From Marsupella aquatica (lineage: Eukaryota; Plantae; Marchantiophyta), in NCBI GenBank assembly GCA_973895155.1, contig OZ316893.1:7526963-7590962 (forward strand): 64,000 nt of DNA. The letters run 5' to 3'. The position numbers and the translations under genes were made by a program. Below the pieces are notes generated by a model that saw only the letters and a program-made list of their open reading frames with translations, ran no database searches and was not told the DNA's origin. Positions 329 through 35,539 of this stretch are shown piece after piece. The first letter of the stretch is position 1, and each line of letters starts with the position of its first letter.

Positions 329-648
329 TTTGTCGATAGAGATGCTGAAGTCGGGGCTTGATTGGAAAATAATGAAAGACCTACCAAAATCAATGTAACA
401 TCATCAATTTGACGTCAATAACCCTAAACGTCCTTCCAAGCTACGTGACAGAAATAAGAACAGGGTCACAAATGATGTTTTTTTACTATGATGTACCTTG
501 CAACATTTCTTATTGTTTCACATACGACGTTAATAAAAATCTGCGTTGTGTTAGAAGACGCTAAGTTAGGTTGACGACGTAAAGTAATCGAGTAACATAG
601 GTATATACAACATAGTTTGAAAGAACGCAACCCTAAAAGTCAGACTTT

Positions 649-3600
649 TGGTTTTTTATCAGTGTATGCACCGAATAATACTGGGGAACGGACCTTGCTG
701 TGGAATGATCTTCGGGATGAACTCCCTTGCAACCGTTGGGTTGTTTGTGGGGATTTCAACATGACAGAATTTTGCTGTGACTCCACGGGCGTTTCACCTC
801 TACTCGCTGGACGGGAATTAGAGTTTTGGAGGTTTCTGAAGACCTGCCTCGACTTACAAGATGCAATTACCATTCTGAACGAGGTGACAGGTTCCAGGTT
901 CACTTGGCGTAGGGTGCGCAATGGTATACTTCTTCAGTCCCGCCTTGATCGGTTTTACTTCAGTGAGAAAGGCAGATGGACTGACGAGATTGTTGATCTC
1001 ACTCATGACGGGACTTCTGCACTGTCTGACCATGATCCAGTGATTATTTCTTTCCGAATGGGTTCCATTGCATTGGTTGAATCACAAAGGCGACGAGGCA
1101 CATACTTTAAGGCTAATCCGACTGTGCTCAGGGACTCCGCAAATCTGGAACGACTTAAATTGGCATGGACAGACGGAACTGAGGATGTTGTTGACCCCCA
1201 CCTGAAATTAGATCGGGCCTTCCATAGGTTTCGTGTCTGCTTCATGGATCTTCAGTCCTTGAAACGACCTCAAGTGGTCGAATTGGCTGAACTTAAAGAA
1301 AAGCTACGACTTCTTAAGATTTCCATCATGGATGACTACTCTATAGACAGCATCAGGGATTTCTCCTATCCCGAAGACTGTGTTCGGACGTTGGAGCTAG
1401 CGGAGGCACATCACAACCGCAGGCTCTCCCGGATTAAATGGCTTGGCCAAGGGGACGAGCCTTCTAAGTTTTATTTCTCCTTAGTGAAAGCTAAATGTCA
1501 GAGGGAGAAAATGGAGGTGCTACTAATAGAAGGCGGTGAGATGATTCTGGAGGAAACACTAATTGTAGAGGAAGTGCAGAGACACTACGAGGAATTATAT
1601 TCTCCACCTGAGATGAGTGCAGCACTCGTGAGCGAGAGGATTGCTGCCCGCAGGAGACTGAGCAGCCACACTCATTTTGCCCCTTCTGCGGTTGAGATCC
1701 GGAAACTTGCAGCTCTTCCATCCATACAGGAATTACATGAAACATTGATGCTGCTGCCCGCTGACAAAGCCCCAGGAGTGGACGGGTTGACAGCCGAGGT
1801 TTTCAAGTGCTGTTGGGAATTTATGAAGGTTGATATTCATAATATGGTCTGTGAGTTTTGGCAGACTGGAGAACTGGCACATTGCATCAAAGAAGGGGTG
1901 ATTCGATTCATCCCCAAGAAAACTGACAAGAGGAAACTGAGCGATTGGCGACCTTTAACTATGCTGACCACTATGTACAAAATCTTGGCTAAACTGCTGG
2001 CTGTGAGACTGAAGGTGCTTCTCCCTAAGATAATCAATCCTCAGCAGACAGGATTTATCCCAGGTCGCCATATCTTAGAAAACATTTCCCTTACTTGGTT
2101 AATGAACGACTGGCTGAGCTACACTGGAACTCTTGCTCTCTTCCTTAAACTTGATTTTGAAAAGGCTTTTGATCGAGTGGACCACTCGTACATCTGGGAC
2201 ACGATGCACCTTCTGGGACTTGGCCCACATTTTATCTTCTTAGTTAAATCACTCCTCAGTAATGCAAGCTCTAAGGTTCTCGTCAATGGGCTATGGACTG
2301 CTGATGTCCGGATGCTTCGGGGTGTGCGACAGGGCTGCCCCTTGTCCCCCCTTCTCTTTGCCATTTCGACACAACCGTTGATGGATTGTTTCAGTGCAGA
2401 AATCATTGCTGGCAGGCTCCAAGGCATCCAGGTCTCTCAGTTTCTGAATATCTGCTTTCGACTTTTTGCGGATGATTTAGGACTTTTTATCCCTGCTACA
2501 GAAGTAGCTTTCAATCAAGCCCAGGATGCTATCCATTGCTATGAGATGGCTACGAGAGCTAAGCTCAATCTGAAGAAATCTGTTGTTATTCCTTTTTCTG
2601 TTGATGTGATCCCAGACTGGTTGAAGGACACTGGGTGTTTTATTAGTGAACCCGGCGTGGTGCAGAAGTACTTGGGTGCACCCTTCGGGAATGGATTAGC
2701 GGAGAGCCAACTCCATTGCTTCTGTCTCGATCGTATTGGGGCTAGGCTCTCTTCATGGTCTACACGTTTCTTATCATTTACTGGCAGATTGCTCCTGGTG
2801 AAACATGTCCTCCAGGCCATTCCAGTATACCACATGATGTTCCTACGGTCACCGAAGGTTTTGACCAAGAAACTGATTGCTCTGAGCAGAATCTTTCTAT
2901 GGGGCACTAATGTGCTGGGGGGCAGGCGTGTCCTGTTGGTGGCATGGGAGAAGCTTACTCGTCCCAAGCTGGTTGGGGGCCTTGGTCTGAAAGAGTTCCG
3001 AAGCCATTCGGATGCTCTTCTGAGCAAGTGGTTCACTGAGGCTCTTGACCATCCGTCATCTGAATGGGCTTCTCTGTATGCTGAGAATCTCACTCTAATC
3101 AAATGGAGGAACTACAAGACGATCCGCAGGAATAGGTACTCTATGTCGGACAAGATGCTGCTTAGCACCCCACGTTCTTTTGGGAAATTCATTTATACTG
3201 GTCAACTGTGGGCTGCTTGGGAACTTGTGCGAGCCAACCTTATTTTTATTCCGGGAGTTTCTGCTATCCCTGGTCACTGGGGTATGGAGGATCTGCTACG
3301 TAGTATGATTGGCTTTTATGATCTCCCTGAGTCTAACATACTTGCGATAGTTAAGATCTGCGGTCGTCTGGGATCCCGTACTGTTGCGGATCTATGGTCT
3401 CAAGCTGACAGGGAATGGAAACCCGTGACTGATCTTGTCGTACGGTTCAGGGGATTTTCCTGGGAAGTGAAGCAGGGGACACTTGCTTTTATCCGGGCTA
3501 TTCACCTATCTGTTTTCCGGGGATGTGCTTTTGACTCAATGGCTAGGCAATGGAGATGGTTAGATAAGGACACTGTTCCCCATTGCTTTGAGCTATCTAA

Positions 3601-4594
3601 CAGCCGGGTGTATGAAATGCTCCGCCCCAAGGGCTCTGATTTCTGCCGGCTCAACCGGATCTGGAATGAAACACTAACTGAGGCTGCCTGGTGTAGAGTT
3701 TGGACAGTGGTGTGGACGGCTGACCTCTCTACTAAGGCTAAAACTTTTGTATGGAGGATATTGGCACAAGGACTTTTCTCTGGTTCCAGGGCGTTGAGGA
3801 TGTCTAAATCAGATGGAACTTGTACTCTGTGTGTGGGCACTGTGGAAACTATCCCCCACATTTTCCTTTACTGCAGACATGCGATCTGCTGTTGGAGGGT
3901 GATCCGAGGCTGGCTGCTTGGTGCTTTAGACCTTGGCCTTTTGTCTATCGTTGGTTTGCTTCACTCCAATACGGGGAAGGGACCTCTGACTACACTACGT
4001 CTTTTCCTATTGTATCAATCCCTATGGTGCTTATGGCTTGCACGGAACTCTCAGACTTTTGACCGATCCAAGTTGAGGGTGTTCGATCAACTGTTGATCT
4101 TCTCAGAGACCCTTGATCACCTGAATGCAGTAGCCGCATCCTCAGTCCTGGGCAAGAAGCATAGAAGACTTACTCAAGCTATCTCGATCTTAACTGTAGA
4201 ACAGAATAGAATTCTCCGGAGTGGTGTACGTCGCACTGTTACTCACTGACTTGTGTTCTTTTTGGAGATGCAGCATATGAGATGGTTAACTAGGAATTGC
4301 TCTATGATTGATAGTATACTGTAGGTCAGAGGTTTCTTCATAGTAAAAGGGATTTTACTAGGATAATCTAAGCACTGCTGGATCCCACTCTATGAAGTAT
4401 CTAGTCTGATCACTGAGCTATGTTGCTCGGTTACTCTATTGGGAATCCCTTGGCTTGTATACTGCTTTGTTGTTGCTGCGGCATAGCTCTGTTTTTTTTC
4501 TTTCCGCCCTGGATGGCCTGCCGCCTTTTGGCCTGCTTGGTTCCCCCATCTGTGGGGTTCACGCGGAATAAAAATTAAATTAAAAAAAAAGAAA
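649..4594 (+). mobile_element. 5'-truncated L1/Tx1-like non-LTR retrotransposon (LINE)
   Basis: 14-bp TSD AAAAGTCAGACTTT at 635-648 and 4595-4608, AATAAA plus A-rich tail at ~4567-4594, and an uninterrupted ORF2. Confidence 0.93.
650..4249 (+). CDS. LINE ORF2: C-terminal part of APE endonuclease, reverse transcriptase, zf-RVT
   Basis: Endonuclease motifs SVYAPN, GDFN, SRLDRFY, SDH. RT motifs KAPGVDG, WRPLTML, LDFEKAFD, GVRQGCPLSP, LFADD, KYLG. C-terminal CxxC...H...C. The listed ORF start at 617 lies in flanking DNA. Confidence 0.93.
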   Translation, partial: GFLSVYAPNNTGERTLLWNDLRDELPCNRWVVCGDFNMTEFCCDSTGVSPLLAGRELEFWRFLKTCLDLQDAITILNEVTGSRFTWRRVRNGILLQSRLDRFYFSEKGRWTDEIVDLTHDGTSALSDHDPVIISFRMGSIALVESQRRRGTYFKANPTVLRDSANLERLKLAWTDGTEDVVDPHLKLDRAFHRFRVCFMDLQSLKRPQVVELAELKEKLRLLKISIMDDYSIDSIRDFSYPEDCVRTLELAEAHHNRRLSRIKWLGQGDEPSKFYFSLVKAKCQREKMEVLLIEGGEMILEETLIVEEVQRHYEELYSPPEMSAALVSERIAARRRLSSHTHFAPSAVEIRKLAALPSIQELHETLMLLPADKAPGVDGLTAEVFKCCWEFMKVDIHNMVCEFWQTGELAHCIKEGVIRFIPKKTDKRKLSDWRPLTMLTTMYKILAKLLAVRLKVLLPKIINPQQTGFIPGRHILENISLTWLMNDWLSYTGTLALFLKLDFEKAFDRVDHSYIWDTMHLLGLGPHFIFLVKSLLSNASSKVLVNGLWTADVRMLRGVRQGCPLSPLLFAISTQPLMDCFSAEIIAGRLQGIQVSQFLNICFRLFADDLGLFIPATEVAFNQAQDAIHCYEMATRAKLNLKKSVVIPFSVDVIPDWLKDTGCFISEPGVVQKYLGAPFGNGLAESQLHCFCLDRIGARLSSWSTRFLSFTGRLLLVKHVLQAIPVYHMMFLRSPKVLTKKLIALSRIFLWGTNVLGGRRVLLVAWEKLTRPKLVGGLGLKEFRSHSDALLSKWFTEALDHPSSEWASLYAENLTLIKWRNYKTIRRNRYSMSDKMLLSTPRSFGKFIYTGQLWAAWELVRANLIFIPGVSAIPGHWGMEDLLRSMIGFYDLPESNILAIVKICGRLGSRTVADLWSQADREWKPVTDLVVRFRGFSWEVKQGTLAFIRAIHLSVFRGCAFDSMARQWRWLDKDTVPHCFELSNSRVYEMLRPKGSDFCRLNRIWNETLTEAAWCRVWTVVWTADLSTKAKTFVWRILAQGLFSGSRALRMSKSDGTCTLCVGTVETIPHIFLYCRHAICCWRVIRGWLLGALDLGLLSIVGLLHSNTGKGPLTTLRLFLLYQSLWCLWLARNSQTFDRSKLRVFDQLLIFSETLDHLNAVAASSVLGKKHRRLTQAISILTVEQNRILRSGVRRTVTH

Positions 4595-4975: not shown

Positions 4976-5219
4976 CACAAAAACCACTTCATGCAATTAG
5001 TCCAAGTAGCTAGATGGCATGCTTGGCACTACAGCTTAGACTGCCCAATATGTAGTGGATGAAATTCCAAAGTTGTGATAATTAATGGACAACCTTAATA
5101 CTGTGAGGAGGTCAATTGCAAGATTGAGGGGGGCAAAAGGACGCAAAAAGGATTAGCTCAAAAAGGAGAGACAAAGGACTCAAATATCATAAAGATTTAG
5201 TTGAACACCCACTACAACA

Positions 5220-5705
5220 TATTTGACACTTTTGCGAAGGTATTTTTGTCGACGCTCTTGTATTTCCGATGGGCGGCGCTTTGCATATTTTGCGAATCAA
5301 CCCGCATCGCAATTTGCGATTCTATCCCTATCGCAAATATAATAGCTGAAGCGCATTATATCGCTAATAAATTGCGAAGTAAGTGGTTTTGCAATTTTTA
5401 CCGAAATGCGTCGAATGGAAAGGCACCTTCCAAAGACGGAAAAATTGCTTGCCGACTCCGAAACTAACTCATGTAAATATTTGCGAAGAATATTGGATTG
5501 AAAATGTTTTGCGATAGTAGTTGTTTGACAAGTTTAAAAATGTCGGAGGATGGAAGATTTGCGAAACGCTGAAAATATGAAATTTGTGATTGATTTTGCA
5601 TCACAAGTTTGCGAAGAGTGTAGTATGGAAATATTGAGAAACGAGAAGCTTCATATAAATTGCGAGTCCGGTGAGAGTTTGTGAGCTTCGCAAATTGTTC
5701 GCAAA
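5220..5705. repeat. Left subterminal TTGCGAA/TTCGCAA repeat cluster of the CACTA
   Basis: Many copies in both orientations. Matching clusters lie at ~11940-12170, ~13440-13630 and ~14500-14900. Confidence 0.8.
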
Positions 5706-6170
5706 CTAAAAATTAAGATTATTGTGAGGTGAGACAATGAAGAGGGTGGATGGTCCAATATATGGATGGGGCAGGAGGGAAGAGGAAGGGAGGATGGAGG
5801 GAGGTACAATGAAGGATGGAAAAGGGAGGGAGTACAATGGAAGAGGAAGGAGGGAGGAGAAAGAGGAAGGGAGGAGGAGGGACAGACGTACCACGGAGGA
5901 GGGAAACACGAGGGTGAGAATGAAAATTATGGAATAAGTAGGAAATAAAGTTATATTGAGCAACAGAGGTTAGATAGAAAGTTGCATGTAAAATTCACAA
6001 GTGATCACAATAAAACAATACAATACATATGTCATGAGTATGACTCATTCAAAAGTGAATGGCAAATATAAATATAGACAATCCTTTTTTTTATATCACC
6101 AAACATGAACAAATCAAATATAACATGAACAAATGTCTAGGCTGGACCCAAGTGCATATAAATATGTCCC

Positions 6171-9100
6171 TCACACTTGGTCCTCATCGGCCTCAAGGTC
6201 ATCTAGGTCTGATACAATAACATCTGGCTTCTCAGAAACAATGGAACGAGAACGTGGCACATAGGTGATGACAATTGACCACTCGGTGTCTAAGGGGTAT
6301 GGAATGTAGAAACATTGCTCCAAGTGTGATGGGAAAGCAAATGGTTCTGACGTTTGCCAATGAGATGCTTGAACACTAGTGGCACTTGTCTTCAACCGTG
6401 TAAACCCACTCTCATCTTGAAGTACAGTGCAATTTTGACCAACAAGGTTCACTTTGAACCACTTGCACTTGAAGACATATTCCTCAAACTTTGAATGGTT
6501 GTCATATGATACCACCAAGATCTCCTCTATCTTCCCATAGTGTGGCACAACATCTCTAACAATGTTCCTGTCATGGCGGCTGCTTCTGGAGTCTTGAGAA
6601 AATTCCCCTTGAACTCCACAATCAAAAGTACGACCCCTCTTCTCATCAAGGGAAGAAACCCTAAAAGTAACAAAACCCACAAATTTTTATTACACTATAA
6701 AAGATACCATTAATGTAATAATCATCAAAATATGACACCCATCCCTAAATAGCCAAAATCCACATGGCCTATGGCATAAATATAGAAGCCAACATTACAG
6801 TTATGGATGTCATTAATGATAATAGAAAGTTTTTAAACAATAGAAATAACTAATCAAAATGAGGTCTACATGAATTAATAGAGGAAGAAAGGTTAGGTAC
6901 TAGTGGACCTGAAGTGTCTCCCTTGTGTCCACATAGCCGTCTTGGATGTCACCACTCTCAAAGGGCCATGAACAATGGTCCGAACGTCATCTGTGATGGT
7001 AGGAAAGTGGGACACATCTCCTCCTTGTGTCACCATGTCATCCAACTCAAGCAACTTTTGCTTCATATACTCATGCATCTTAGGAAAAATTCTTGCTCTT
7101 TGACTTGTTCTCTTGGCATTCTCATAAAACTCTCTCCATTTCTCCATGATATTACTATTACTCAACATAAATGTTGTCAACTGTGACCACTCTGTTGATG
7201 TCAACATGCGTGTTTTTGTGGCACCTGTTAAACGGTCCTCCTCCTCTTCTCTTTCGTGGACAAGTAGGATCAATGGTGGCCAAGATGTTACTACAATAAA
7301 ACATACTCTCTGCTGCCAAGTATCCTGTAGCTATGCTTCTCTCCACCCGTGCACGGTTACGTACATAAGCCTTCAACACCGCCATGTAACGCTCAAGCCA
7401 ATACATCCATCTACAATGCACTGGACCTGCAATGGCAACCTCCCGCACAAGATGCACAAGTAAATGAACCTGACAATCAAAGAAGGAAGGAGGAAGGGCT
7501 TTCTCCAACTTGCATACCACCTCAGCTGCCAATACCTCCATCCCAGGGATCTCTTCTACATATATCTCCTTTGAGCATATCCATCTCAACAAACGACCCA
7601 ATGACCAGATGGCATCTTGCACTTCTTCACTCCCTATACCTATAATTGCCACTGGCAATATATGCTGCAATAGGCGATGATAGTCATGTGTCTTCAGATA
7701 TCGTGGCCACTTGTGATTGTCCTCCATCCCAAAAGCTTTTCGAAGGTTGGCACCATAGCCTGTAGGAAACCGCATCTCTCCTATACGGTTCCAAAATTCA
7801 CGTCTTTGGCCAACACTCAACACCCAAGGAGCAGAAGGACGATTCTCCACACCTGTGATAGGATCAATTGTCACCCAAACATCTGGATGCATTTCCATCT
7901 CCTCGCATACCTCCCTAAAATTAGTGTCCTTCTCCCCATAAAAATGCTTTATCAAAGCCTTCCCCACATTTCCCTCTATGTGCATGGGGTCTAAAAGATG
8001 GCGGATCTTCAACTCAGACCAATAGGGCAAAGTGGCTAGTATACTCCACCTGGTCAAACCTGTCCTATCAAAGGTGAAGGAATCATTTGGGTCTGCCACC
8101 CTATTAGCTAGTGACTTCCAATGTGCAAAACTTGTTGCATCAGGAATTTCACGCTCATCACCAAATGGCATGTCAAAGGAGGAGAATAGAAGTGGGTCAA
8201 ACCTCATCTCATGCCCCATGGGAAGAAACTTTGTATGCCCAATATAAACAATCTTTCTAATCCATGAACAATATGTGGCCATGTCCTCTAAGCTTGGGCC
8301 ACAAGTAGAGCAAGCTTTGTACCCCTGAGTTTGCAATCCAGAGACAAAACCAAACCCTGCTTACATAGAAGAAATCAAACCATGCAAACTTTATGTTAGG
8401 GTTGTCACATGAGAAACATCAATAGGAACTACACATTATTGAAGGGTTGCAAATGGCATGGAAGTCATCTTACCAGGATAGTCATGCATTGTCCAACAAA
8501 TGATCCCTCTCAATTGAAAGACACGTGGAAAACCTCCTGTAATTTTCCTGCCATCATATGCCCACACTCCATTCCATAATTTTTGAAGTTCTCCAACCAA
8601 TAGTGCCAAGTAAGTGTCAAAGTTCTTCACCTTTTTTGGACCTGGGATAATCAAAGACAATAAAAGGAACCCCTTCTTCATGGATAGCCATGGTGGGAGG
8701 TTATAATTCATGACAACCACAGGCCAAACTGATGTAGGTTGCCCCTTTCCTCCAAGTGAATGAGGGCTAACTCCATTAGATGCCAATCCTAGCCTCACAT
8801 GGCGAGGATCATGTGCAAAGTCTGGCCATGTTGCCTCAATATGTTTGTGAGCAGGGGAGTCAACTGGCAACCGCATGACACCAGACTCTGATCGATGAGT
8901 CTTATGCCATACCATCAACTCTGCCAAGTCAGAACACCGATACATGTGCAACAACCGAGGAATGATGGGAAACCAACGAACAGCCTTCCTTGGCACCTTC
9001 TTTGTTAGCATGTTGGGGTCATAGCGAGGCTCATCACATGTTGTACATTGTGTCATGTTTGCATTGGCCCCATGAAATAACATGCAATCATTCACACATG

Positions 9101-10976
9101 CATGAACAATATGATATTCCATGCCAATAGATGAGAGAACACTCTTTGCCTCCTTCCAAGTTGCTGGCAACACATTCTCAGTGGGCAACATAAGGTCATG
9201 GCAAAGTGCAAACATATCAGATAACAAGGCATTGCTTGCCTTGTGTTTGGCCTGTAGGTTCATCAACCCCAAGATGGCTGAAAGACGACTCAAACGAGCA
9301 CCCTCATAGATAGGTGTTCGGGCATGTTCCTCTGCTTCTTCCCATTGGCGTTGTCCCTCAGGGGTATGCCTTGGGCGTGGATCATTGGGGGGCACCTGCC
9401 CTTCATTGGGAAGGTCATCACCAAGGTTGTCGGCACCAAACCAATCAACCATAAAGTCATCCATGGCTCTATCCTGGTCATCAGTTACTTGTTCATCCGT
9501 CCGAGGTACCTCTTCATCAGGGTTACTGCTTCCACTAGCACTTGATGAGGAGTGTGACTCTGATCCATGTCCTTCTTCTGGCATACCCATTTCTCGATAT
9601 GTTGCTCTCAATCTCCGTGGTAACATATTTGGAGAGGGTCGCACATTCTAAAAACAAAGCAAACAATTGAAAGTTATATTGCAAAGAGAACACACACAAA
9701 AATGGGCTAGGGGTGTGCAAAAATGAAATAATATTGGTTGTGGTGCAAATACAAAATGTGGCCAAAGGCCATATGTAGTGCCCTTTGATATGCAACATAC
9801 CACCTATGACCCTTAACTTAACCCTAATCCCACTCATAGTGAGTAAATAACTCATCCCCTGAGTTAATGGTCCTTGTTGCTACAACTAGGCAATGGTCAT
9901 GATGATATGTCTGGCCATAAGGTGCTGGCGGAGGACCCTCAATAAAAACCCACTCACAATTTTGCCTACGCTTAGGGCGAGTCCCCACGGTACTGTTTAT
10001 GAAACCATCAATATTCCCAGTCCGTATGGGGTCCCCATCTATGACACGCTGCTCACTATACCTTCTAGTGTTTCCATCAAAAGTATCCATGTCCAATGCA
10101 TAAGTCTTCCACTCAGGGTGTTGTGCAAGGATCATGTTCCAATGTCTTCTCTTGTAGATGGGTCCACCATAAGGAAACAAAGTAGGCCCCTCTCAGCCGC
10201 GTCCACCTCTACCACTCTCGGCGTCTACAATGATGTCCTCACAGGCAAAAACTCCATAGCCATGTCTATCCCCAAGTGTGGAAGGTTTGATAACCCAACG
10301 TCTACCCCAAACCTCTACCTCCGCACCGTAGGAAAGCTGTTGTGGCAAACCAAGAGTCTCAGGATCCCAGTCCTTGATGATAGGGACACATCTGCCAGTG
10401 AACTCACAATCACCCCACCGACCCGTAACCACTGCCTTGTACAAATCAGTATCCCCTCGGGCCCGCCTCTTGGAACGCTTTCTCCCTCTTGGGACAATAG
10501 CCTCAACCCCAACTTCCCTAGGACTGGTGGGCCTTGCCGCTAGACCCAAGGCTTTTGAGAATGCATTGCCTATAGCATCTAGAACACCTTGTGATGGGAC
10601 ATAGGGTGCTTGTGCTGCAGGTCTAGGCCTATTGGATACCTATTCCACCGAAACCAAAACAAACAAAAGTAGGTGTGAAATTGCAAACCTTCAACCATTG
10701 AGTAATGGGAATAGGGTAGGAAAACTAAGGCATAACACTTACCATATGAGATGAAGAAGCCCCTGCCGTATGACGTCCACAATGCCCATATCTCTCAATA
10801 TGTTGGGCACATATGTAAGATTTTTGGGAAACCTGACCCCCACATCTGGAACATTCACAAAGTTGACGGGGTGGACCGCGAGGAGGAGGTGCGGTCGTGT
10901 GATGTTGAGGTGGAGGTGGTGTATCTTCATCAGAGGAGGACGAGTCTGTGGTGGAGATTTCAGAAGATGAAGACAT
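6171..10976 (-). CDS. CACTA TnpD/Tnp2-type transposase, spliced, with one frameshift near 7255
   Basis: Predicted exons 10976-10743, 9647-8474, 8356-6909 and 6660-6171, with GT-AG sites in compatible phases. Motifs HACVNDCMLF, WFPIIPRL, SVWPVVVMNYNLPPW, DYPG, LDPMHIEGNV, LKTHDYH, VHLLVHL, WMYWLER, HYGKIEEI, FKCKWF and QCFYIPYP. Confidence 0.9.
9824..10639 (-). pseudogene. SET-domain (lysine methyltransferase-like) exon inside the CACTA, with one in-frame TGA at 10193-10195
   Basis: ORFs 10193-10549 and 9824-10180 share one frame: WVIKPSTLGDRHGYGVFACEDI...LFPYGG...YAL...IDGDP..TGNIDGFINS...QNCEW...LVVATRTINSGDELFTHY. This matches SET motifs I-IV. Confidence 0.85.
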
Positions 10977-11429
10977 ATCCCCTGTAACAAGATATAATTA
11001 AAATGGGCATGTTATGACCAAAACATACCACAAAATGATATAAATCAAAGTTCCCAAATAATGATGACAAGAAACCCAAACCAAAATGACCATAGCAATA
11101 AAAAAGGTACCTTTATGAGACCCGGGCTCAGCAGTGCCAATAGCTCTTGTGGCTCTAAGATAATTAATGAACCCAATCTGAAAGTATGAGGGAAAAGCTG
11201 CAACCATTCCATGTATATGTAAGCACAATAATCTGGACCAGACAAGAACAAAAAACCCTATATACATGTCCCCTTTATACATAGTGGCAACCAAAAGTGT
11301 TAAGTACATGAAAGGAACACTTTAGCCGATCATGCAATGTTTACCTTTCAGATGCCCGGGCTCTCACAATGCATATGCATTAGTATCAAATCATCAAAAA
11401 GTGCCGCACCCTGCAAGCTATCATATATT

Positions 11430-11830
11430 CCCCTCCTTTGTTAGCAAAACCCATGCCAATCCCCTTTTGATTCATAAACCCAATGAACCTCTCTTAAACC
11501 CAAAAGGCTGCAATATAAATCTCATGAAACCTTGCTTTGTCTTATCCAAACCTTCAACCCCAAACCGCATCCTACCTATTAAACCTAAATCTGACTTACA
11601 CACGAACCCAAACCTTTCTTCAACCCTAGAGACCTTTCTATTTAAAAACCCCAAACCCTAAAACCCTAAACCCAAACCTTACTTATTTCTTGTAAACCAA
11701 ATCCCACACCTTTATTATTTCTTCTAAACTAATGTAAACCCAAACCTTAGCCTAAACCAACACCATACATAACCCATTAACCTGAAATCTGCCTAACCCT
11801 TCAAACCTGCCTTCAACTATTATCTAACAC
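11430..11830. promoter_or_regulatory. AAACCC(T)-rich spacer between the divergent CACTA genes, candidate bidirectional promoter/leader
   Basis: Dense degenerate telobox-like AAACCCTA/AAACCCA repeats between the head-to-head ORFs. Confidence 0.35.
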
Positions 11831-12275
11831 CCAAAACATGGCCAAAAAGCATTCCAAATATGAGTATAGAGGGGTCCACTTCACCTTTGAAAAAAACCCT
11901 TTCAAATGAAACCAACATTCCCCCAGGACGAGTTGCCAATGTCTTGCGAAGCCGCTTCCTTCGCAAATACCATCACAAATTAGAATTGAGGTTTGCAAAG
12001 CTACTGCTTTTGCAAGACCTTCAGAAAAACAGAGCCCGAGAGCATTTCTGCGAGAGAGCGAAGGTGTTGCGAAGCCTTTCACGTCGCAATGGTTTCGCAA
12101 AATTGAGAAACTATATGCGAAACAAGAAGAATCGCAACTTGCGAAACGGGTTGCTTCGCAAGTCTTTCCCGCTTGTACTTTTGCACTCGGCCGTGGCATA
12201 CTCAGCGGCATTTGACAAATTTCAAGCGTAGGGAGGGAGAAGGGAGCTCGCGCGCGCTCGGGGGGTGGCTTGGCT

Positions 12276-14246
12276 ATGGATTCCAGTGGAGCAAATGGAG
12301 GTGATAGGGCAGGGGTGAGTGAGAGTGGCAATGGGAATGAAGGCAATGGGGAGCAGGAGAGGAATCGATGGACCGATTTGATGGCTGAGCACCTCAATGC
12401 AGCACAGTTGAGCCACTTAGATTTGACTACACCAGCAGGGATTGCTTCTTTGAGTGCAATCCTTGGGCAAGCCTTGCAAACGGGAGTAGATGCAGGGAAC
12501 ATTGCAAGGGAGGAGGAGCAAAGGAGTGCAGCTCAACAGAAGGCAAGAGAGAAGAAGCGTAAGAAGGAGGAGAGGGCCAAGGCAGGAGTAGTCTCACCTG
12601 TTGCCCTAGAAAAGAAGAGGAGGAGAGAGGAACGAGATGAGATAAGAGCACAGCGGGAGGAGCAGCAAAAGAAGGAGGAAGAGAGGAAGAAGCTGCCTAT
12701 GATTGCCTTGATCGAAGGCATTCCTACTGAACTGGCCTACACCGGTGCAAAGAGCACTATCAGGCTTATGGTGCGCTCCAATTTTGCACGAGGAGTTGAG
12801 TGGGGGAAACTCAACAAGGCAGACCAGAAGAAAGTAATGAGTCAAATCAAAGATTCATTTCAAAATGGAGCAGAGATTGATGAACAGTGGCTTGCAGATA
12901 GAATTTCCAATTCAATGTCTCAAGCACGGTACCATGATAGGAAGAAGGTAAGGGCCTACCTGGCAAACTTGGAGGAGTACAGAAACGTGAGGAGGCCACT
13001 GCAATTCACTGAGGACGTGTGGAATGCCTTTTACAAAGTGGAGGTGCGGATGAGAGCTGCCAGGAACCTTCTCTTCTGGAAGGAGATGGAAGCCAAGGCA
13101 CAGAAGGCCGGGAAGTCCGACCGAGAGCTCAAGGCAATGGCTGAGAAAGTGTCTCACATGCAGCACATTGTGGATGAAGTGGGTGCACCACCCCAAAAAT
13201 TCATCCTTGCAGCTGAGCGAGTCAGCAAACGGCCCAAGACCACGCACAAGATGGGCCAAGGTGGACTTCCCGGCCTCAAAGCACACTTTGTGAGTGGGCC
13301 CTCTCCTCTCCTCCCCTGCTTCTGTTTCCTTGCTTTCAATTGCTATCCAAACCTGCAATGCCCCCCCTGCATACCTCTTGTTTCTTTCTTACGGCCTGCC
13401 TTGTACTTTAGGTCACCCTGACACATTGCGTGCCTTAGAGATTTCTCGGAATTTTTTAAAAACAGAGTTTGCGAAGCTTTTGCGATGCGGGTTGCTTCGC
13501 AAATGTTTTGCAAAGTCTATCATGGCATTTTTTAAAGTTGTAAATGCGAAGCTATTGCGAAATAACTCGCTTCGCAAACTACTTCGCAAACAGCCAATTT
13601 ATTTGAATTTGCGAAGTGGGGAGTTTCGCAAGTGTGTATTATGTTTTAAAAAAACCGCTAAGGGTTATTGAGCCCAGTTTTGTGTTAGGGGGCACCCTAT
13701 TAGCACCTCCATGCATTTTTCTTGGGTTTATAGCATATTAACCTCGATCTATTTTGGTTTTGGAATGTTTGGTTGTGGTAGTATAAGAGGTACCGCAGGA
13801 AGATAACAGCAAAAGAGATGGAGATAGGAGCTGCGCATGGAGCCAAACATCTCTTTGACTTGGTTGACGCAGAGTTGGCGACTGTAAGTGCATGTATCCC
13901 CTTCAGTTTTTCCCACCCAATCCACTTATCTTTTCATTCCGTAAACCTAAACCAATTTGGCGTTGTGTTGTGCAAACAGGATGATGAGGATGCCAGTGAT
14001 ACCAGCAGCACCGATGAGAACAATGAGGGGACCACGACAAAGGGGCCCAAGGTAGGAGGGAGTAGTGGATCTGGACCAGTAGGAGGAGTTTCCCAGCAGG
14101 AGGGGGAGGAAGAGGATGAGGACGAGGACGAGGAGGAACCAGATGTGGAGGAGCAGCCAGCACCACCTCCTGTGCCACGTCCGGATCGTCGCAAGAGGGA
14201 CAAGGGGAAGAGGCCGGCGACAAGGAGTAGGAGGACCCCATTCTAG
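12276..14246 (+). CDS. CACTA second gene (TnpA/Ptta-like accessory protein), 3 exons
   Basis: Predicted exons 12276-13289, 13782-13883 and 13980-14246, all phase 0 with GT-AG. It has a charged coiled coil, W..L...Q..V, 'RP.QFTEDVWNAF', 'THKMGQGG' as in Ptta/En-Spm accessory ORFs, and an acidic/basic tail. Confidence 0.7.
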
Positions 14247-15171
14247 AGCTTGGTGGTGTAGTGCCTATGGGATGCCCATTTACTTAGTGTAGTATATAGT
14301 TTTGATATGGGTAGTCTTATAGGGACCTAGCTTGTCATATGACATCCATCTAGGGTTTAGGGTTTAGGAAACCCTAATTTTTGTGTACCTATCAATTTTC
14401 TATAAAGCAATTTTGATTCAGACCTCATTCTCCATGTTGGACGACAAGACCCCAACCATAATTCAAAACTCTAAATCTAAACCCTAGCCTCAAGACATCT
14501 TGCGAAACCTATGCGAACAACCCAATTCACATATTTACCATATTGAAGGTATCGCAAACATTATGCAAACCACATACGTTCACAAAAATGCGAAGCCATG
14601 TTCATGGCATAACTACCATTAACTTAATATCGCAAACCGATTACCAAACTTCTGGGATTGCAAATATTTAACTGCTTGATTATTATCGCAAGCCTCTCGC
14701 GACGCCCACGGAGTCGCTTAAATGTGAGTCCTTTGCGATTCTATTAGTGTCGCAAGTTGCGAAGGTCTTGCGAAAGACCGGATGCGAACCTTTGGGCTTC
14801 ACAGTTTGCGATTCTATTGCGATGCGCGATACTTCGCAAAGGCGAGTTTTGTTTTTTGATTTCCTTTGTTGTTTGCGATGCTTTCAAGTTCGCAAAAGGT
14901 GTGGGTAGTGTTGTAGTGACCACTTCCAAAAAGGTTGGACACACTTCCCAAATTGTTGTGCACACTTCCAAGAAGATTGAGACTTCCTAAAAGCCTGGAC
15001 ATACTTCCAAAGACTTGGCATGCAAGATCTCACCTTCCAATCTCAACTAACTAATCCTAGCCATTTGGTGTAACACCTGTCCACCCCTTGTAAATTGGGA
15101 AGGATTGGAATCCTTTTGGTGGAGAAATTGGAGATCCTTTTTGCCCCCCTCAAGCTTGCAATTGACCAGGA

Positions 15172-16598
15172 TGGAGAACCCTCAAATAGTGGTATTCTTG
15201 CTTCAGTTTCCAAGTGATCCCAATCTTCTTGATCTACTTCCATGATAGGTTGCTCGGCGTCAGGCTGGTGCATGAGGTCCAAAGTGGATGTCAACAAGGT
15301 GGGCAAAGGAAAATTCTTCAAGGGATAGGGTCATGTCCCTCATCTCCCTCGTCGTCAACATCATCATCCAACTCTCCATCATATGCATCATGGTACTCCT
15401 CATCCTGATCGTCCATATCATCATCATCAAGGGGATGACCCTCAACATCCTCCTCATCTGAGAAATTTAAGGTGGCACGAACGTGAAAGGCATGGGCTGA
15501 TGTAGTCATCATTGATGGGTGAGATGTGGGACTAATAATTATGTACACCATCCTAGAGTTATCAATAATTATGCAATGATAGATCACAATTAGAGAAAGG
15601 GTTTCCATGATAAAGCTTACAATGAAATTGAAATAATGCAAAATGCAAGGGCCACCCCATAATGAGTAACTATGTCATGTACACATGTAGTCATCAATGC
15701 CAATCATAATCTACCAGAATCTCTTCCCTGCTCTAATGGTGTAGGTAACATGTGTCAAGATGTAATGCGTGCATGCTACAGGCAAACGAGGGTGACTCTG
15801 GTCATGGTACTCGTGCCACTCAGCGTTTGGCCTAAACCCGAAACGCCAAGAACCAATAGTGTTGTTGATATAACCCACCAAGTTCCCCGTCCGAGGCAGG
15901 TAACCATCAATCGGAGCATACCTAGGGTCCAACTTTAGTGACATGCCATATCGACTAAAGGTTGGACTCTGTTGGGACAAGATGCGCCATCTCTGAGCCA
16001 AATACTTTGGCCCATAGAATGGAAACAACTAAGGCAAATCATTGGGTGCACAATCAGTAGGGACCATGATATCCACAAGAGCAAATACTCCAAAGTCCTA
16101 CATGAGTCCCCAATGTGGAGGGGAGGAGGACCCATGGGCGGTTCCAAACTATAATAGGTTCTCGAAGGTGGAGGTCCATAGGGAGTCCAAACTGGGCTAG
16201 GAAGGAGTCCTTTAAGATGTACAAGGCTCTCCTTTGCAACTCTCTTGGTGCCCGAGATACCAATGCATCAAGAAAAGGGCATGGGGGCGAAACAATCCTA
16301 GGTGGACAAGTGTCAATCGATCGGGGTCTAGTGATCACCACTACTCCCCTCTAGATAGGGTGCATCCTAAACACTCTCCTCCTCCTACAAAATACACGGT
16401 CTATTGCCCTCAATGTGGCTGGCAATGCGGATGGATGGATGAGTGGTGCAAACGCACGACGTGCAATGTCTCTCAAGCGGTCCACAGGCAAAGACCCTGG
16501 GCCCCCACTCCCAGCAAAATATATGTACCCACTATGAACAGATCCCCCCCTTGGTACTGTTGAGCATAGACGACACTCATAACGGTAAGCACATGACA
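15172..16598 (-). pseudogene. Older, diverged SET-CACTA relic (SET exon followed by transposase N-terminus)
   Basis: WNRPWVLLPSTLGTHVG/(frameshift)FGVFALVDI..*LFPFYG..YGM..IDG..TGNLVGYINN..PNAEW..ILTHVTYTIRAG at ~16150-15711. An acidic exon follows, then EARIPLFEGS (compare HARTPIYEGA). Confidence 0.8.
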
Positions 16599-17088
16599 CA
16601 TCCAACGCGCAAGTAGTCAACACAAGAGATACGTGGTTCACCTCCTCAAGGCTACGTCCACGGGAACACACAAGAGAGCTTTACTGAACTCTAAGCCCGT
16701 CGACCATACCAAGTCTCCATAGTGTAAGCTCTCCTCATCTCTCAAGTGGCTCCATAACAATGAGCCTAAGTTCCACTTATCCAAGCAAACACCGCTTGGC
16801 ATATAGTGTACATCCTAGTTAACCTAACCACATCTCCGACTATGGTTAGCCTAACTACGGTTACATGTCGTAACCCTAGACCTTGAGTAAATACCTAATA
16901 ATCTCCCCCTTGACTCTGGTCTAGGGGAGGGTAATACTGTCTATATGATTCTTCAGCGGGAAGTTCTGGATGAAAACTAACATGGTTTCCCCTCTCTAAC
17001 TAGAGCAAACCAGAACTAAGCCGTAGCCTATTACTAGGAGTGAAGAAGAGCATATATCAATAATTACAGCAAATGTTAAGAAAAACCC

Positions 17089-20000
17089 TTACTTGTGACG
17101 TAATTGCAAAACTTGCAGCACGTCACGATATCTAGAGAAACTTTCCAAAGGAATCATTTTGGTAAATGCGTCAGTTAGGTTGAGTTTACCGTCTATCTTG
17201 ACTAGCTCAAACAAATTATCAAACATAGCCTGCCTGATAAAATGGTACCTGACATCTATGTGCTTCACTCTACTGTCCATCACCTGGTTCACAGCAAGGT
17301 GGAGCGCACTTTGACTATCACAATGGAGCTTCACATTCCCCTGTGGCAATCCCATTTCAGTGATAAGGCTATCCAACCAAATCGCTTCCTTCGCTGCTTC
17401 CGCTACTGCAACATACTTCGCTTCTGTAGTAGACTGAGCAATACACTTTTGCAAAATAGATCTCCAACTTATGCATCCACCGCCAAGTGTGAACACGTAC
17501 CCTATTGTTGATCTCCTTCGGTCCAGATCTTGTCCATAGTCAGACTCTACATAGCCAATCAATGATCTCGCATTCTTTGCATTTGCATCAAATAAAAGAC
17601 CATGATCCACGGTACCCTTCAAGTACCTGATAATCCACTTCACTACTTCCCAGTATACCTTCCCTGGATTTGACATGTACCTGCTCACCTTGCCCATAGC
17701 CATGGCAAGATCAGGTCTAGTGCAAGTCATCAAATACATGAGACTTCCCACTGCCTTATCATAAGGAACTTTTGACATCAGCCCCTTCTTTGTCGCATCT
17801 GTGGGACAAAAAGCTGATGACAATTTGAAGTGTGCAGCCAAAGGGGTACTTACTAGCTTGCTATTCCCCATGTTGAACCTAGCAATTACCTTCCTCGCAT
17901 AACTACTTTGTGTCAACCATAGCTTACCAGCCTCCAAGTCCCTAGTGATCTCCATACCCAAAATCCTCTTAGCTGGCCCTTGGTCCTTCATCTTAAACTC
18001 TGTACTTAGCAGTGCCTTAAGCTTAACAATCTCAGACCTATCCTTGGCCGCAATAAGCATGTCATCCACATAAAGTACTAAAACAATGAACCCAAAGACA
18101 ACATTCTTCATCGGTTTCAAATATACACAAGGGTCAAACACACTCCTGTGAAAACCTTGTGACCGAATCCAATCGTCAAACGCTTGTTCCACTATCTTGG
18201 TGACTGCTTCAACCCATACAAGGATTTCAGCAATTTGCAAACCAATTCCTCCTGTCCTCTCTTCACAAAACCTAGCGGCTATTTCATGAAGATCACCTCT
18301 TCCAAGGTGCCATAGAGGAAAGCTGTGACAACATCCATCTGATCTAGCAGCAGACCAAACATTACAACAAGCACACACAATAGCCGTATCGTAGAGTACT
18401 TAGCAACTGGTGAGAAGACCTCATTGTAATCCACACCTTTCTCTTGTGTGAATCTCTTTGCTACCAACCTAGCCTTGTAGACCTTTGATCCACTTCCCGG
18501 CCTCATTCACAATTGGAGGACCCAAAAGGAATGTCACACTCAAAAGTGACCATAGTTTATTATGCTTTAGGATATCATTTGTAGGGTGTAATGACATGAT
18601 ATAGAAAATTTGATGTACTATACTTAATAAACATCTTGTAGGTTGGTAACAATCATTAAACTATCTAGCATTTGAGACTTTGAAGCTTTCCTTATATGTT
18701 CTTCAAAGATTGATAAAAGGACTTATCACGCAACGGGTCACATCCTTTCATGACTCAAAAGGACTCTAAAAAATGCATTTTAGACAATGAAATTTTACCA
18801 AAGCATGCATACTAATAGAATAATCTTATATTTCAAAACTCAAATATTGACACACACTAAACCTTTATGTACAGGACAAAAATAATCAGTAATTTTGGCT
18901 TATTTAGGGCCATCAACAATAGGATCCCTTAAAACAGTTGAAAACTTGATTTATCTACATGGTGAGGTAGGTAACACCATGTAAAATAGTCTTGTGAAAA
19001 AATTAGACTTAAATGTCTTGAGATAAAATCATGATGAACCTTTTTCCATGTTATGAAAGTCATTTTTCACTAAAAAAACATGTTTTTGAGTCCTAAAAGT
19101 GGTTTCTGTGAGGTACACCCAATTGTGAATGAGGCCTCCCGTAGACTTATCCTTCAACTTGTATATCCACTTGCTGTCCACCACTTGTTGACCCTTAGGC
19201 AGCTTAACAAGCTCCCAAGTTTTGTTGTCCTTCAATGATTACATCTCCGTTTGCATTGCTGCACAGTCCACTTCTGCTTCTCCTTTGAAGCACTTGCCTC
19301 ATGAAATGAAGAAGGTTCCCCTTCTTCCAAAATTAACGCATCACCCTCATCATCAACTGCAAAATCATCCTCTTGCAGTTGAGATGAATCAACCCACTGT
19401 CCATACCTAAGAGAAGCGTGTACAGTGCGACCAGATGTTCTTCTAGCCGATGACTCTGGTTGAATTGCGTTTACTGGTACGATTTGAAGCTCAGCAGCAT
19501 CCACTTGCTGCTCACCAGCATCAATAAACTCCTCTTGTTCCTCTAGCACAGGAACCAGCTCCATGCTTGGAGCACCTCCTTCTCTTCGATCATGCACTTC
19601 ATGATCAATCTCCCCCTCAACGAGATCCGAGATAGGAGATTTTCCTTTGTCAATACAGGAGACCTGAGTATTCTTCCCCTCCTTCAATAATCTGGATTCA
19701 TTGAAGGAAACATCCCTACTGACAATGAACTTACAGGCAATAGGATCCCATAGCCTGACTGTAGGCCTTCACACCACTCTGATACCCAAGAAAAATACAT
19801 TTCTTGGACGTAGGATCCAACTTGGTCCTATTCTGCTTTGGTATGAGAGCATATGCATCACTTCCAAAAATTATCAAGCCATGATAGTCTGCTTGCCACT
19901 TATAACACATTTCAAATGGTGTTTTAAAATTGATTGCACTAGAAGGAGAAAGATTTACCAAATAAGCTGCAGTATTGATAGCTTTCGCCCAAAATTCTTG

Positions 20001-21883
20001 TGGTAAACCTGATTGGCTCAGTATACTTCATGACCGCTCCAATAGTGTTCGATTGAGCCTCTCAACGACACCATTCTGCTGCGGAGTATAAAGTGTGGTG
20101 AGATGGCGAGTTATCCCCTATTCTGCACAATACTCTTCAAATTCTATTGAAGTGTACTCCCCGCCGTTGTCTGACCTTAGACTCTTCACCTTGGTATCCA
20201 AACACTTAATCGTGTTTCCCGTCTGATTCTCCACTTGGGCATTCCACTTTGTAAAAATGGACAAGACATCAGACTTATGCGTCATGAAATAAATCCATAC
20301 AAATCTTGAGTAATCATCAATGAAGGATACATAGTACAATTTTCCAGAATGTGAGGGAGTCGAGGATGGTCCCCACACGTTACTATGTATGTACTCAAGA
20401 AACGCTTTGGAATGATGAGTTCCAACACCGAAAGAACAACAATGCTGCTTTCCAAAAATGCAATGCTCATAGAATTCCAATTTACAAGACTGCAAATCAT
20501 AAATGAGCCCATTCTTCCGCAAGATAGCCAAACCCTTCTCACTCATGTAGCCTAACCGTGAATGCCACAGTTGAGTCATTTTCTTGTGAGACTTGGTTAC
20601 ACTGGCCTCTCCACATACTGTATTGCCCTGCAACACATACAAATTCTTCTGTCTGCTCCCCTTCAAAATCACTGTCTCTCCCGACATGACTTGAAGTTCA
20701 CCATCAATTACTCGCCATTGATGACCATTTGTATCCAACACACTGAGTGAAATCAAATTCTTACGCATGCCAGGTACAAACCTGACTCCGGACACTGTGC
20801 GCACAATGCCATCAAACATTTGAATCTTTACAGACCCAATACCCTCAACTCGACAGGAGTGATCATTTCCCATCAAAACTGAACCGTTTGACACAGAATA
20901 AGAATTGAAATACTTGCGAATGTAACAAATGTGAAAGGAGCAAGCACAATCAAGAATCCACACATTATTTGCTCTCCTAGATGATGTGCACAGGGCATAC
21001 TCCTGACTTCATAAAACATAATCATCATTGAGTAAATCAACTTCTTTATCCGCACTAGCCACATTGGCTGATGAAGAGTCAACTGCCTTAGCCTTACAAT
21101 CCCTCTTAACGTGACCAACCTTGTGACACTTCCAACAGACTAATGGCTTTCTCTCCTGGGACTTCCCCCTTGAAGTAAATCTTGTCCTAGATTTACTTCG
21201 TCCCTTGCCATTCGTGCGCTGCTCGGGACGCCGAGCTGTGACCTCCCACGATTCACATTCAAGGCAGCACCAAATGACGATGTTGTCTGGGCTTGACCCA
21301 ACTTCTTTTGTGCATCATCTGACAGCAAAGAGCTTACCACCTCATCATATGAAATAGACTTCAAGTCTCTATACAAGAGAACCTGCTTCAAACCCTGATA
21401 AGATGGAGGTAAGGAGCTGAGAAGAAGCAAGGTCTTGTCCTCTTCTTCAATGCCCTTACCGAGATTAGACAAATTAACAACTAGGCTATCAAATTCATCC
21501 AAGTGATCCTGGAGCTTGTTCCCCTCTTTGAGCTGAAGGCTCATTAAGAGAGACTTCTTGTACAATCGATCATATGCATCCTCCCAATAGTACTTCTCCC
21601 TTAGGGCTTTGAATAGAGATGCACAATCTGCGTAGTCATCCAACTTCTTGATGATATGCGGCTTCAGATAAAGCATCACCGCATTCACTGCAATTACTTG
21701 TTCCTGCCTCCACCTCTTTAGTGAAATCTCCTCCTCATCATCGTACATCTCTTGTGTAGAGAGAAGATGATCTAGGCCCATAGCGCAAAAAACTCCTTTC
21801 ACTTGCTTCTCCCAGAGCAAGTAGTCCGTATGCCCATCATACTTTTCCACCTCAAACTTGATACCTCCGAACTTGGATGCCAT
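17089..21883 (-). pseudogene. Copia gag-pol in the order gag, zinc knuckle, protease, integrase, RT, RNase H; frameshifts and stops present
   Basis: LLLSSLPPSY, WILDCACSFH, LWHSRLG, FIDDYSR, LRSDNGGEY, YKARLVAK, QMDVVTAFL, LYVDDML, TRPDL, KHIDVRYHF. Confidence 0.92.
18499..19136. mobile_element. 638-bp MITE inserted in the copia RT
   Basis: Perfect 18-bp TIR GGCCTCATTCACAATTGG and 4-bp TSD TCCC (18495-18498, 19137-19140). Removing it restores KDKSTGSGSKVYKARL. Confidence 0.9.
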
Positions 21884-23014
21884 CTATTTTTCCTTCATAA
21901 TCCCTTCTACTCGCTGCACCGGTGATTGTACTGGTGTCATGTGCGCTTCCTCCTGCTCCTCTCTCTCCTCCTCAAACCGTTGTGATGATCCTCGTGCTTC
22001 AAGATCTACTTCTTCAAAAATCTCCTCCGAATCACTTATGTGAGAATGCAAGAAAAAATGATGTTTTTTCAATTTCTTCAAAAAACTCAAAACTTATCAC
22101 CGCCGCGTACCCCACAAGCCTAGCTCTCCAATGCTGAAAACCATAATCAAAACTGAACTCCGACGTAAAAGTTATTCACTTTTTGGTCGGGGTGGGTAAA
22201 ACTTGGAATTCTCCCCCGTTTTGACCACCTCGGGGAATAACCAAAAAGTGAACTAGTACCCGAGGTTGGAAATGCAATTCAATTTGTGCACCGCGTTGCC
22301 AACTTTGATGGCTAGCAACTTGCCGAAGACGAAGGAAAAAAGTTACCTTTCGGCGGACAGAATCTTTGACGGACGGCCGAAAACATGCTCTCTGTTTTTT
22401 GGGAATATTCCCACACAGAGCAGCAGGGCTCACAGGGGGCCGTTCCCCCTGTCCAAGCGGTTAAAGTGGAGGGCGGCAGGTCCCGGGAAGCGGCACAAAT
22501 AACAGGAAGCCGGGGAGGAAAAAAAATGTAAAAAAACAGACTTAAAGGGGTGTAAAGCCACTTTCGAAAAAAAAAGGTATAAAGGCCGGGGGCATACAGG
22601 GACCGGGGAGGGCGTATGGCGGGGCGAGGATGGAGGGGTTGACAACCGGAAGTGGGTGGTCGGGGCAGGCTGCTGAAGCCGCGAAGCGGCTGAACACGGG
22701 CGAGGCAAGGCGCGCGGGGGGGGGGGGACGCGTAGTGGGCGGGGAGGGAAAAAACTCCGGGCGGCAGGCTGCGCTCCGGCCTGGTCACGGGCTACGGTGA
22801 GTAATGGCGAGGGGTGGCCAGGGGGTTGCTTGTGCGTAAAGGAGGGGGAGGAAGGGGTAACGAATGCGTGTGTATACACACACAAAGTGTGTCAACACCC
22901 CCCAAAAAATACAAAGGAAATAACTGGCAAAGAATCCAAATTGCACGTTATCACCGGCAAGGGGCCCGAAGAAATATTTCCTTGCAATGTGAGAGAGAGA
23001 GAGAGAGAGAGAGA

Positions 23015-24229
23015 TTTACATTTCCATATACATAGATAACACCCTGCAATAGGTCTTATTGTTCACATGTTCGCTGTTCCATTGATTTGCAGTGCAACAA
23101 CATGAGTATACAGATACATATGAACATAAGTTTACACCATATAGATAGTTTAGTTATCAAGCCTTTAATAAAGATATTGACATAGGATTTCACCTGTCAT
23201 CGATATCAAAGCATAAATTTCCTCTGTGACAGTGAAAGATCACCCTTGCTTACAGGTTAGACTCCTTACGCTATTACCCAAGTGAAATTAGTCATTGGGC
23301 CTGTACTGGGTGACAGTATTACTCTAATGCTGTGTCCACAGCATTGAGCATAGGCCATAATCTCTCTCCAGGAATAGACGGACGATATCTATTCACCCCT
23401 CCAGTGTCTTCGTTCAGCCCCCGCCACTGGAGTGAGATCGTATTTCATTCATACGATTTCGTGTCCCATGTTTCTGTAGCAATGTCTAGACGGCTGCGGG
23501 GAGACATGGGCCGGAAAGAGGCGAGCCACCACAGCATTCTATTTATTCTAAATTGTCATTTGTTCATATAGAGGCAACATTCAGACATTCAAGTAATTTT
23601 TCACATTCAAACATTTTAGATATGCAGCTACGTGTCTATGATGTAGCACCTGAACCGGTTGGGAGCTCATTGTGAGCACGAGTGACTGTTAGCTGGATGC
23701 TGTTGATTTAGTTGCTCACTGCACGTTCTCCTTCCAACGCTCCGATCCTCTGCCCCTCATGAGCTGCTTGCCATTTGTGTTGTCTGCCAGTGTTGCACGA
23801 TACTCATGCTGCCATGCCTTGCTATTTCTTTGGTGATTCCTTGTATCTCTGTAGAGTGCAGGAAGTGGGATATGGATATAGAATATTTTTGGCTATTCCT
23901 GTGGAAGGCAGCGCCGCTATGCTGGGTCATATTTTAGGGTAATCTTTTGAGATTGCCTTGTGCATAGATGGCCCAAATATTCTGTGGATAGATCAACGGT
24001 TGAGATGGTAGTCATAGTATAGCGGGAAGCTTTTTGTTTGGGCATTGGTTGTGGATATTATATGTGCATGGTATCCTATGCTGTATACATATATCATATA
24101 TTTTAGGTATCTTGTCTTTTACAAGTGTCATGCAGCTTTGTCTCTTGTATGTCCTCGTTGTTGAGGAAAGGCATATTCATGTTAATGTTGATCCCAAGGC
24201 TGATCCTCTCCTCGTCAGCTTATTCTTTT
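23015..24229. mobile_element. Unit 1 of a pair of related non-coding elements bounded by GA repeats
   Basis: Follows (GA)12 at 22991-23014 and ends TCTTTT|GAGAGA. It is collinear with and similar to unit 2. Confidence 0.55.
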
Positions 24230-24235
24230 GAGAGA

Positions 24236-35276: not shown

Positions 35277-35539
35277 TTCTGCTTTCGAGCTCTCCCCACC
35301 CTTCTCTTCTATGAGCTCCCTGAGCGCCGACAGTACGTTCGGAGAAACTCTAGAATTGGAATTTCAAGACCAACTTTCAAGACTGCCGTCGTCTCCTTGC
35401 TGGCCATCTCTGTTCTCGAGCTCTCTATCTAGAAGGTACTTAAGATAACACAACCCCTTCATAAGTAAGTACATAAAGACTTGCAAGAGACGGTGGCCCA
35501 GTTGGACAATCGGAGATCCCAGCCGCATGACCATATCCA

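Follow-up and report, generated by a model that had tools for sequence, protein, structure and literature searches.

In maize En/Spm, according to the accessible parts of the relevant papers, the tnpA and tnpD products are generated by alternative splicing (PMC1636069, PMC13547354, bioRxiv 2024.04.02.587720, PMC4158355). SET-domain genes have been described on the HarbingerS and MuDR families of Phytophthora and on Helitrons, and the red-algal Plavaka, a CACTA-related (CMC) element, carries PAG2, which encodes an adenine methylase together with SET (PMC12730594, bioRxiv 2025.02.11.637652). The accessible parts of the literature examined report no target or activity of transposon-borne SET proteins and offer sequence annotations only; the accessible part of PMC11982613 contains nothing on SET-carrying elements of the kind presented below.

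The element analysed here shares with maize En/Spm and with Arabidopsis EN/SPM3 and EN/SPM7, as far as these are described in the accessible text, CACTA terminal inverted repeats (TIRs), a target site duplication (TSD) of 3 bp and the domains Transposase_21, DUF4218 and DUF4216 (PMC1636069, PMC13547354, bioRxiv 2024.04.02.587720). It also resembles En/Spm in that a single transcription unit would yield, by splicing, the transposase and a second protein, which is in our case a prediction from the sequence. This parallel, drawn in a preliminary description of the locus, holds only loosely: in the accessible accounts of En/Spm the splice choice lies between TnpA and TnpD, and no enzyme is nested in a transposase intron. 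Here, the second product would be a SET enzyme, whose last exon is nested in the first coding intron of the transposase and which would have a coding domain in common with it; moreover, the element carries a separate, divergently oriented accessory ORF. HarbingerS, MuDR and Helitrons represent other superfamilies and hosts, with SET as an accessory gene and no mention of a common coding exon in the accessible text. Plavaka is similar, as a relative of CACTA (CMC) whose accessory gene encodes SET, but PAG2, as described in the same sources, is a separate methylase-SET gene within a three-gene cassette, whereas the SET domain considered here is devoid of a methylase and would be led by the Cys/His module of the transposase. 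No description of a bryophyte CACTA element with SET, or of a nested shared-exon layout, was found in open-access full text, although Repbase entries and bioRxiv supplements may list such families. SET-carrying transposons and alternative splicing of En/Spm are both known.

Structure of the element and its related loci

The window, i.e. the whole 64,000-nt stretch of DNA analysed, contains a complete CACTA/EnSpm element of 9,709 bp (5210–14918, minus strand). It is bordered by TIRs starting with CACTA (CACTACAACA, at 5210 on the plus strand and at 14918 on the minus strand) and by the TSD ACC (5207–5209 and 14919–14921), and it encodes a TnpD-type transposase, with Transposase_21, DUF4218 and DUF4216 detected by Pfam. 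The element is multicopy in the contigs of four coded runs. One contig of run X3 joins position 5207 to 14922 and thus represents an allele without the element; one base is missing compared with a clean empty site, so that this allele may either bear the footprint of an excision or predate the insertion.

A scan of metagenome contigs with the first coding exon (exon 1) yielded 65 related loci, nearly all belonging to one family, whose proteins match Sphagnum gene models; at least one other family is represented (L031). A CACTAC end was present 3.2–3.8 kb upstream, with varied flanks, in 19 of the 65 loci. SET was found in 22 of the 25 loci with at least 300 nt downstream of exon 1, and SET followed by the transposase in all 9 with at least 1,150 nt. 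Out of 1,564 candidates, a search with the SET exon identified 42 proteins; those with a species name belong to Calypogeia fissa, Sphagnum species and Riccia sorocarpa, which points to a bryophyte, either a moss or a liverwort, as the likely host of the element. One SET-protein cluster has 360 members. No relatives of the SET protein were found in viral or prokaryote contigs, and a search for longer proteins, performed with the transposase, returned one plant protein only. The SET proteins of Calypogeia and Sphagnum are 63% identical, and dS between the window and loci L055, L052, L047 and L060 is only 0.7–1.4. Should one host be a liverwort and the other a moss, such divergence would be low for lineages of this age and could point to horizontal transfer.

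All exons of the transposase gene lie on the minus strand. Two conserved, probably non-coding 5' exons can be proposed: (i) 11345–11381, open-ended at its 5' end, with the donor AAG|GTAA and 80–87% identity to loci L031, L016 and L028, and (ii) 11111–11177, with an acceptor at 11177 or 11195, the donor AAG|GTAC and 70–80% identity to L031, L063, L037 and L012. A coding role of the latter 67-nt exon (11177–11111) upstream of exon 1 was rejected because of frame-breaking indels among these relatives. Exon 1 (10743–10981) has its ATG at 10976, followed by a Ser/Pro-rich leader and a C-x-C-x2-C-x13-H module; its 78 codons (10976–10743, CECSRC...CAQHIERYG) end in the phase-0 donor ATG|GTAAGT, and the translation and the letters agree with the preliminary description on this point. 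An intron of 103 nt (10640–10742, GT..AG) separates exon 1 from the SET exon (9824–10639, 271 codons and a stop), which opens in phase 0 at 10639 (VSNRPRP...) and in which Pfam recognised SET at 10192–9827 (E 2e-5, above the cut-off). A 176-nt spacer (9648–9823), presumably comprising the SET 3' UTR and polyadenylation region, carries the distal acceptor, TTTGTTTTTAG. Transposase exon 2 (8474–9647) then opens in phase 0 at 9647 (NVRPSPN-M...) and contains Transposase_21 (9647–8439 in the Pfam match), exon 3 (6909–8356, with an inferred 3' border) contains the end of this domain and DUF4218, and exon 4 (6171–6660) contains DUF4216 and runs to the stop.

The anatomy of exon 1, the SET exon and the transposase exon is thereby confirmed. 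Both 10639 and 9647 directly follow an AG within an in-frame TAG, so that each continues exon 1 in phase 0, as originally proposed. The claim that both acceptors are of the polypyrimidine-AG type was borne out for one of them: 9647 passes a test of 70% pyrimidines over the last 20 nt before the acceptor, whereas 10639, which is U/G-rich and ends in GGTGGAATAG, fails it and is the weaker site. The intron of the transposase that holds the SET exon would be its first coding intron and probably not its first intron, given the two probable non-coding exons upstream.

The copy in the window is dead, a point absent from the preliminary description. Its SET exon contains a premature in-frame TGA (10195–10193) at a codon that specifies Arg in 28 of 35 matched homologues; in the transposase, Asn stands at 8777 in place of the first catalytic Asp (Asp in 111 of the 115 matched relatives, 151 having been examined); and a deletion of 14 nt near 7255, seen by comparison with L064 and L050, shifts the transposase frame. 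The copy thus lacks the intact frame and the DDE residues of an autonomous, active element. The Asp allele at 8777 was read by contigs from all four runs. With three inactivating lesions in this copy, the question of splicing concerns the family.

On the opposite strand, the element carries the accessory ORF (12276–13421, 381 aa), conserved at 50–60% in 50 of the 65 related loci and without a Pfam or Atlas match; it may be the equivalent of TnpA/ORF2, facing away from the transposase. A further frame on the plus strand (13782–14246), the first ~40 codons of which are kept in relatives according to sequence comparison, may belong to this accessory unit, as a second exon or gene. Repeats of TTCGCAA/TTGCGAA are clustered at both element ends and near 11.9–12.2 and 13.5–13.6 kb.

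Fragments of a second, older and decayed SET and transposase element (16242–15714, 15231–15133 and 4962–4636, minus strand; 30–43% identity to the family) flank the CACTA element, which appears to have inserted, as a young copy, into the transposase of this older SET-carrying relative. A Copia LTR retrotransposon (~16560–25907) with a broken gag-pol and LTRs that are 96% alike lies 5' of the older SET remnant, and the remains of the older element adjoin a stop-free frame of 1,217 codons (596–4249, plus strand), which from its motifs we take to be LINE ORF2-like. Elsewhere in the window, three regions probably represent host genes or ORFs of another kind, namely a frame of 472 codons of no kind that we recognise (33945–35363, minus strand), a presumed GTP-binding-protein-like exon (38561–39190, minus strand) and presumed lipid-kinase-like exons (49116–53332, plus strand).

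Predicted splicing of the first coding exon

We consider it likely, with a probability of roughly two in three, that intact members of the family splice exon 1 to one of two partners, the SET exon or, with SET skipped, the transposase; both junctions are predicted from sequence. The original proposal of a shared, alternatively spliced exon is in this form supported by comparison of the donor and of both acceptors, as well as by the likeness of exon 1 to the N-terminal domain of CACTA transposases. Spliced forms were found at none of the 65 related loci. The contig joints of runs X1–X6 were rejected as splice junctions, since they behave as DNA, with an unsequenced stretch between the joined parts, and correspond to the diverged introns of sibling families; among those listed, none corresponds to 10743->10639 or 10743->9647.

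The donor GT of exon 1 is kept in 53 of the 54 loci readable at this position (65 were fetched), in 48 of them exactly as GTAAGT. Among the 33 loci long enough to include the SET acceptor, 26 have TAATAG, 5 TAATAA and 2 are rearranged, and the intron between exon 1 and SET is more alike in the window and L055 than in any of 200 shuffles (200/200). Gene models of Calypogeia and of five Sphagnum species, which are predictions, join exon 1 to SET. Since there is no Met before the SET core either in the window's SET exon or in the Calypogeia protein P0001, SET would need exon 1 for its translation. The missing Met argues against the very improbable arrangement in which exon 1 serves the transposase only and SET is expressed from its own start or is a passenger, as do the conservation of the first coding intron with its acceptor and the purifying selection acting on SET. 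Such an arrangement draws on the loss of the acceptor AG in 5/33 loci and on an early Met of the SET exon, 4–6 codons from its beginning, which L031 and Sphagnum-type loci possess; in Sphagnum-type SET exons it lies 4 codons in, and 263-aa models start there.

The transposase acceptor, AG|AAT in phase 0, matches the window in its codon position in 9/9 loci that reach it, all of which belong to one family and so come close to a single independent comparison; in L029 one codon is missing behind it. Alignment of the spacer ahead of this acceptor does not exceed chance, as 53 of 200 shuffles were as good. The retention of the donor and of both acceptors at the same codon positions, next to a spacer that cannot be aligned, is therefore more than would be expected by chance, and the request for conservation made by the preliminary description has its answer in the figures of 26/33 for the SET AG and 9/9 for AG|AAT. 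As for the donor that feeds 9647, the conserved GT sites within SET are in phase 1, a mismatch with the phase-0 acceptor, for which reason they were rejected, and no conserved phase-0 donor scoring at least 7/9 was detected in SET or in the spacer. This leaves exon 1 as the donor.

Codon 8 of the transposase exon is Met in the window and in 9/9 loci, and this allows another assignment, which we regard as rather unlikely: exon 1 would belong to the SET gene only, the Cys/His domain having been handed over to SET, and the transposase mRNA would pass from a non-coding 5' exon, or from the leader of a separate promoter, to 9647 and be translated from this Met. Two conserved non-coding exons with good donors are indeed available upstream, two separate tandem genes occur in some Arabidopsis EN/SPM families (in the accessible part of the literature), and the gene models with exon 1 are all of the exon 1–SET or read-through type, a direct exon 1–transposase model being found for 0 of 14 exon-1 matches. 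This last point loses weight, as gene predictors seldom model skipping over a coding exon. What speaks against initiation at the internal Met is that the seven codons preceding it keep N-[VI]-R-P-S (N-I-R-P-S-E-D, with single variants, in the loci; N-V-R-P-S-P-N in the window) with synonymous third-position changes in the Arg and Pro codons, a pattern that coding sequence behind a phase-0 donor should show, and that a CxCxxC domain, none of which is present in the window transposase exon, is kept on the transposase in 45 of the 62 relatives with room for one. If exon 1 is joined to the transposase, the distance from the motif to the core would be long, at 220 aa compared with a median of 172 (2/40 are as long), which counts against this junction.

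A single long transcript running from exon 1 into SET, either dicistronic with re-initiation at the transposase Met or spliced from a donor inside SET into an exon 1–SET(part)–transposase fusion, is still more improbable in our estimation. Automatic models do fuse a partial SET to the transposase in Sphagnum (P0028) and in Riccia (P0052, P0054 and P0056, with SET pieces ahead of the transposase and, in P0054, a Cys/His lead), yet these fused models differ among themselves and are truncated. The spacer contains no AATAAA, and the maize tnpD mRNA is, according to the accessible text, dicistronic; on the other hand, the SET stop is conserved in every locus that reaches the end of SET, the SET-internal GT is unfit for the phase-0 acceptor, as stated above, and the conserved acceptor at 9647 needs a donor.

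The Cys/His module and the SET protein

Exon 1 resembles a diverged and shortened Transpos_assoc domain, which the window transposase exon lacks. The earlier assignment of exon 1 to the N-terminal Cys/His associated domain of CACTA transposases agrees with the C-x-C-x2-C...H...G pattern, the profile likeness and the position N-terminal to Tnp2, but Pfam gave no match, including Transpos_assoc (PF13963), to the window exon or its close homologues. Comparison of exon-1 homologues with the N-termini of relatives by hhalign gave 94.7%, in a test that is partly circular, because the N-terminal templates were chosen by the motif. C40, C42, C45 and H59 are invariant over 31 aligned proteins, Pfam recognising Transpos_assoc in 18 of these. 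Shuffles with the motif held fixed were beaten by 5 of 6 exon-1 homologues (0–8 of 500), whereas the window's own exon failed to beat them (84 of 500), so the assignment is weak for this copy. The structural model of exon 1 is confident over residues ~35–65, which form a hairpin and a helix, in keeping with a putative Cys3His zinc site; it had no match in Foldseek or VIA-align. The module is a small domain, and nothing in the model points to a new fold. No function of Transpos_assoc was found in the open-access full-text literature.

The assignment of the predicted second product to the SET-domain proteins is based on Pfam (above the cut-off), Foldseek, VIA-align and Atlas. The model of P0001 (mean pLDDT 60) has a SET fold, shared with SET8/SETD8 (Z 8.3, rmsd 3.1, 116 aligned), EZH2 (Z 7.5), MLL1 (Z 7.3) and SET7/9 (Z 7.2); with an identity of 15–20% to these enzymes and tied Z scores of 7–8, neither the subfamily nor the substrate can be assigned. 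Aligning the SET homologues against PDB sequences gave no match. GxG is retained in 38/42 homologues, YxG in 40/42 and ELF..Y in 33/42; together with RFINH, these correspond to what we take to be the cofactor and catalytic motifs of SET (GxG, YxG, RFINH, ELxxxY). The canonical Asn-His is replaced by Asn-Ser, with (F)INS in 34/42 homologues and Asn-His in 0/42. Loss of this His is compatible with activity in PR-type domains. In the Atlas features of P0001 residues 145–351, its own clusters are followed by an unnamed cluster and SET proteins of Nucleocytoviricota and haptophytes, which may hint at where the captured SET came from.

The ratio of dN to dS, calculated from separately computed values for the window and six loci, was about 0.17–0.21 for exon 1, 0.20–0.24 for the SET core and 0.14–0.15 for the two longest transposase stretches, which indicates purifying selection on all three.

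Expression model and its implications

The splicing of exon 1 to either partner would operate within one transcription unit, with a promoter upstream of ~11.4 kb and two non-coding exons preceding exon 1. A Cys/His and SET protein of ~350 aa would result from the use of 10743->10639 and polyadenylation within the 176-nt spacer, while 10743->9647 would give a transposase of ~1,120 aa with the Transpos_assoc-type, Tnp2, DUF4218 and DUF4216 domains. With its proximal acceptor and spacer poly(A) site set against the distal acceptor, SET, captured by the first coding intron of the transposase, would behave as an alternative last exon. The splice choice would then ration the transposase and tie SET expression to the activity of the element.

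As to function, we tentatively suggest, at less than even odds, that the shared module, which probably binds zinc, recruits the SET enzyme to the element ends or the transpososome, where it would methylate histones or a partner protein; by analogy, such methylation would probably counter silencing of the element. More doubtful is the general scenario in which CACTA elements of bryophytes acquired their alternative last exon by taking up a lysine methyltransferase, with the N-terminal zinc module of the transposase put to further use in addressing this enzyme to the element or its transpososome. Such a chromatin writer would target itself, one splice choice would balance its dose against that of the transposase, and it would have been kept across peat mosses and liverworts.

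If the two-junction prediction is correct, the element would make its own candidate chromatin-modifying enzyme from the transposase transcript, and the shared exon would offer a handle on the Transpos_assoc domain. Since this is a high-copy family of land plants, with many intact-looking members in the sequenced genomes of Sphagnum and Calypogeia, the question of function is testable. It would also follow that hundreds of peat-moss gene models annotated as 'SET domain-containing' (360 in one cluster) are transposon genes.
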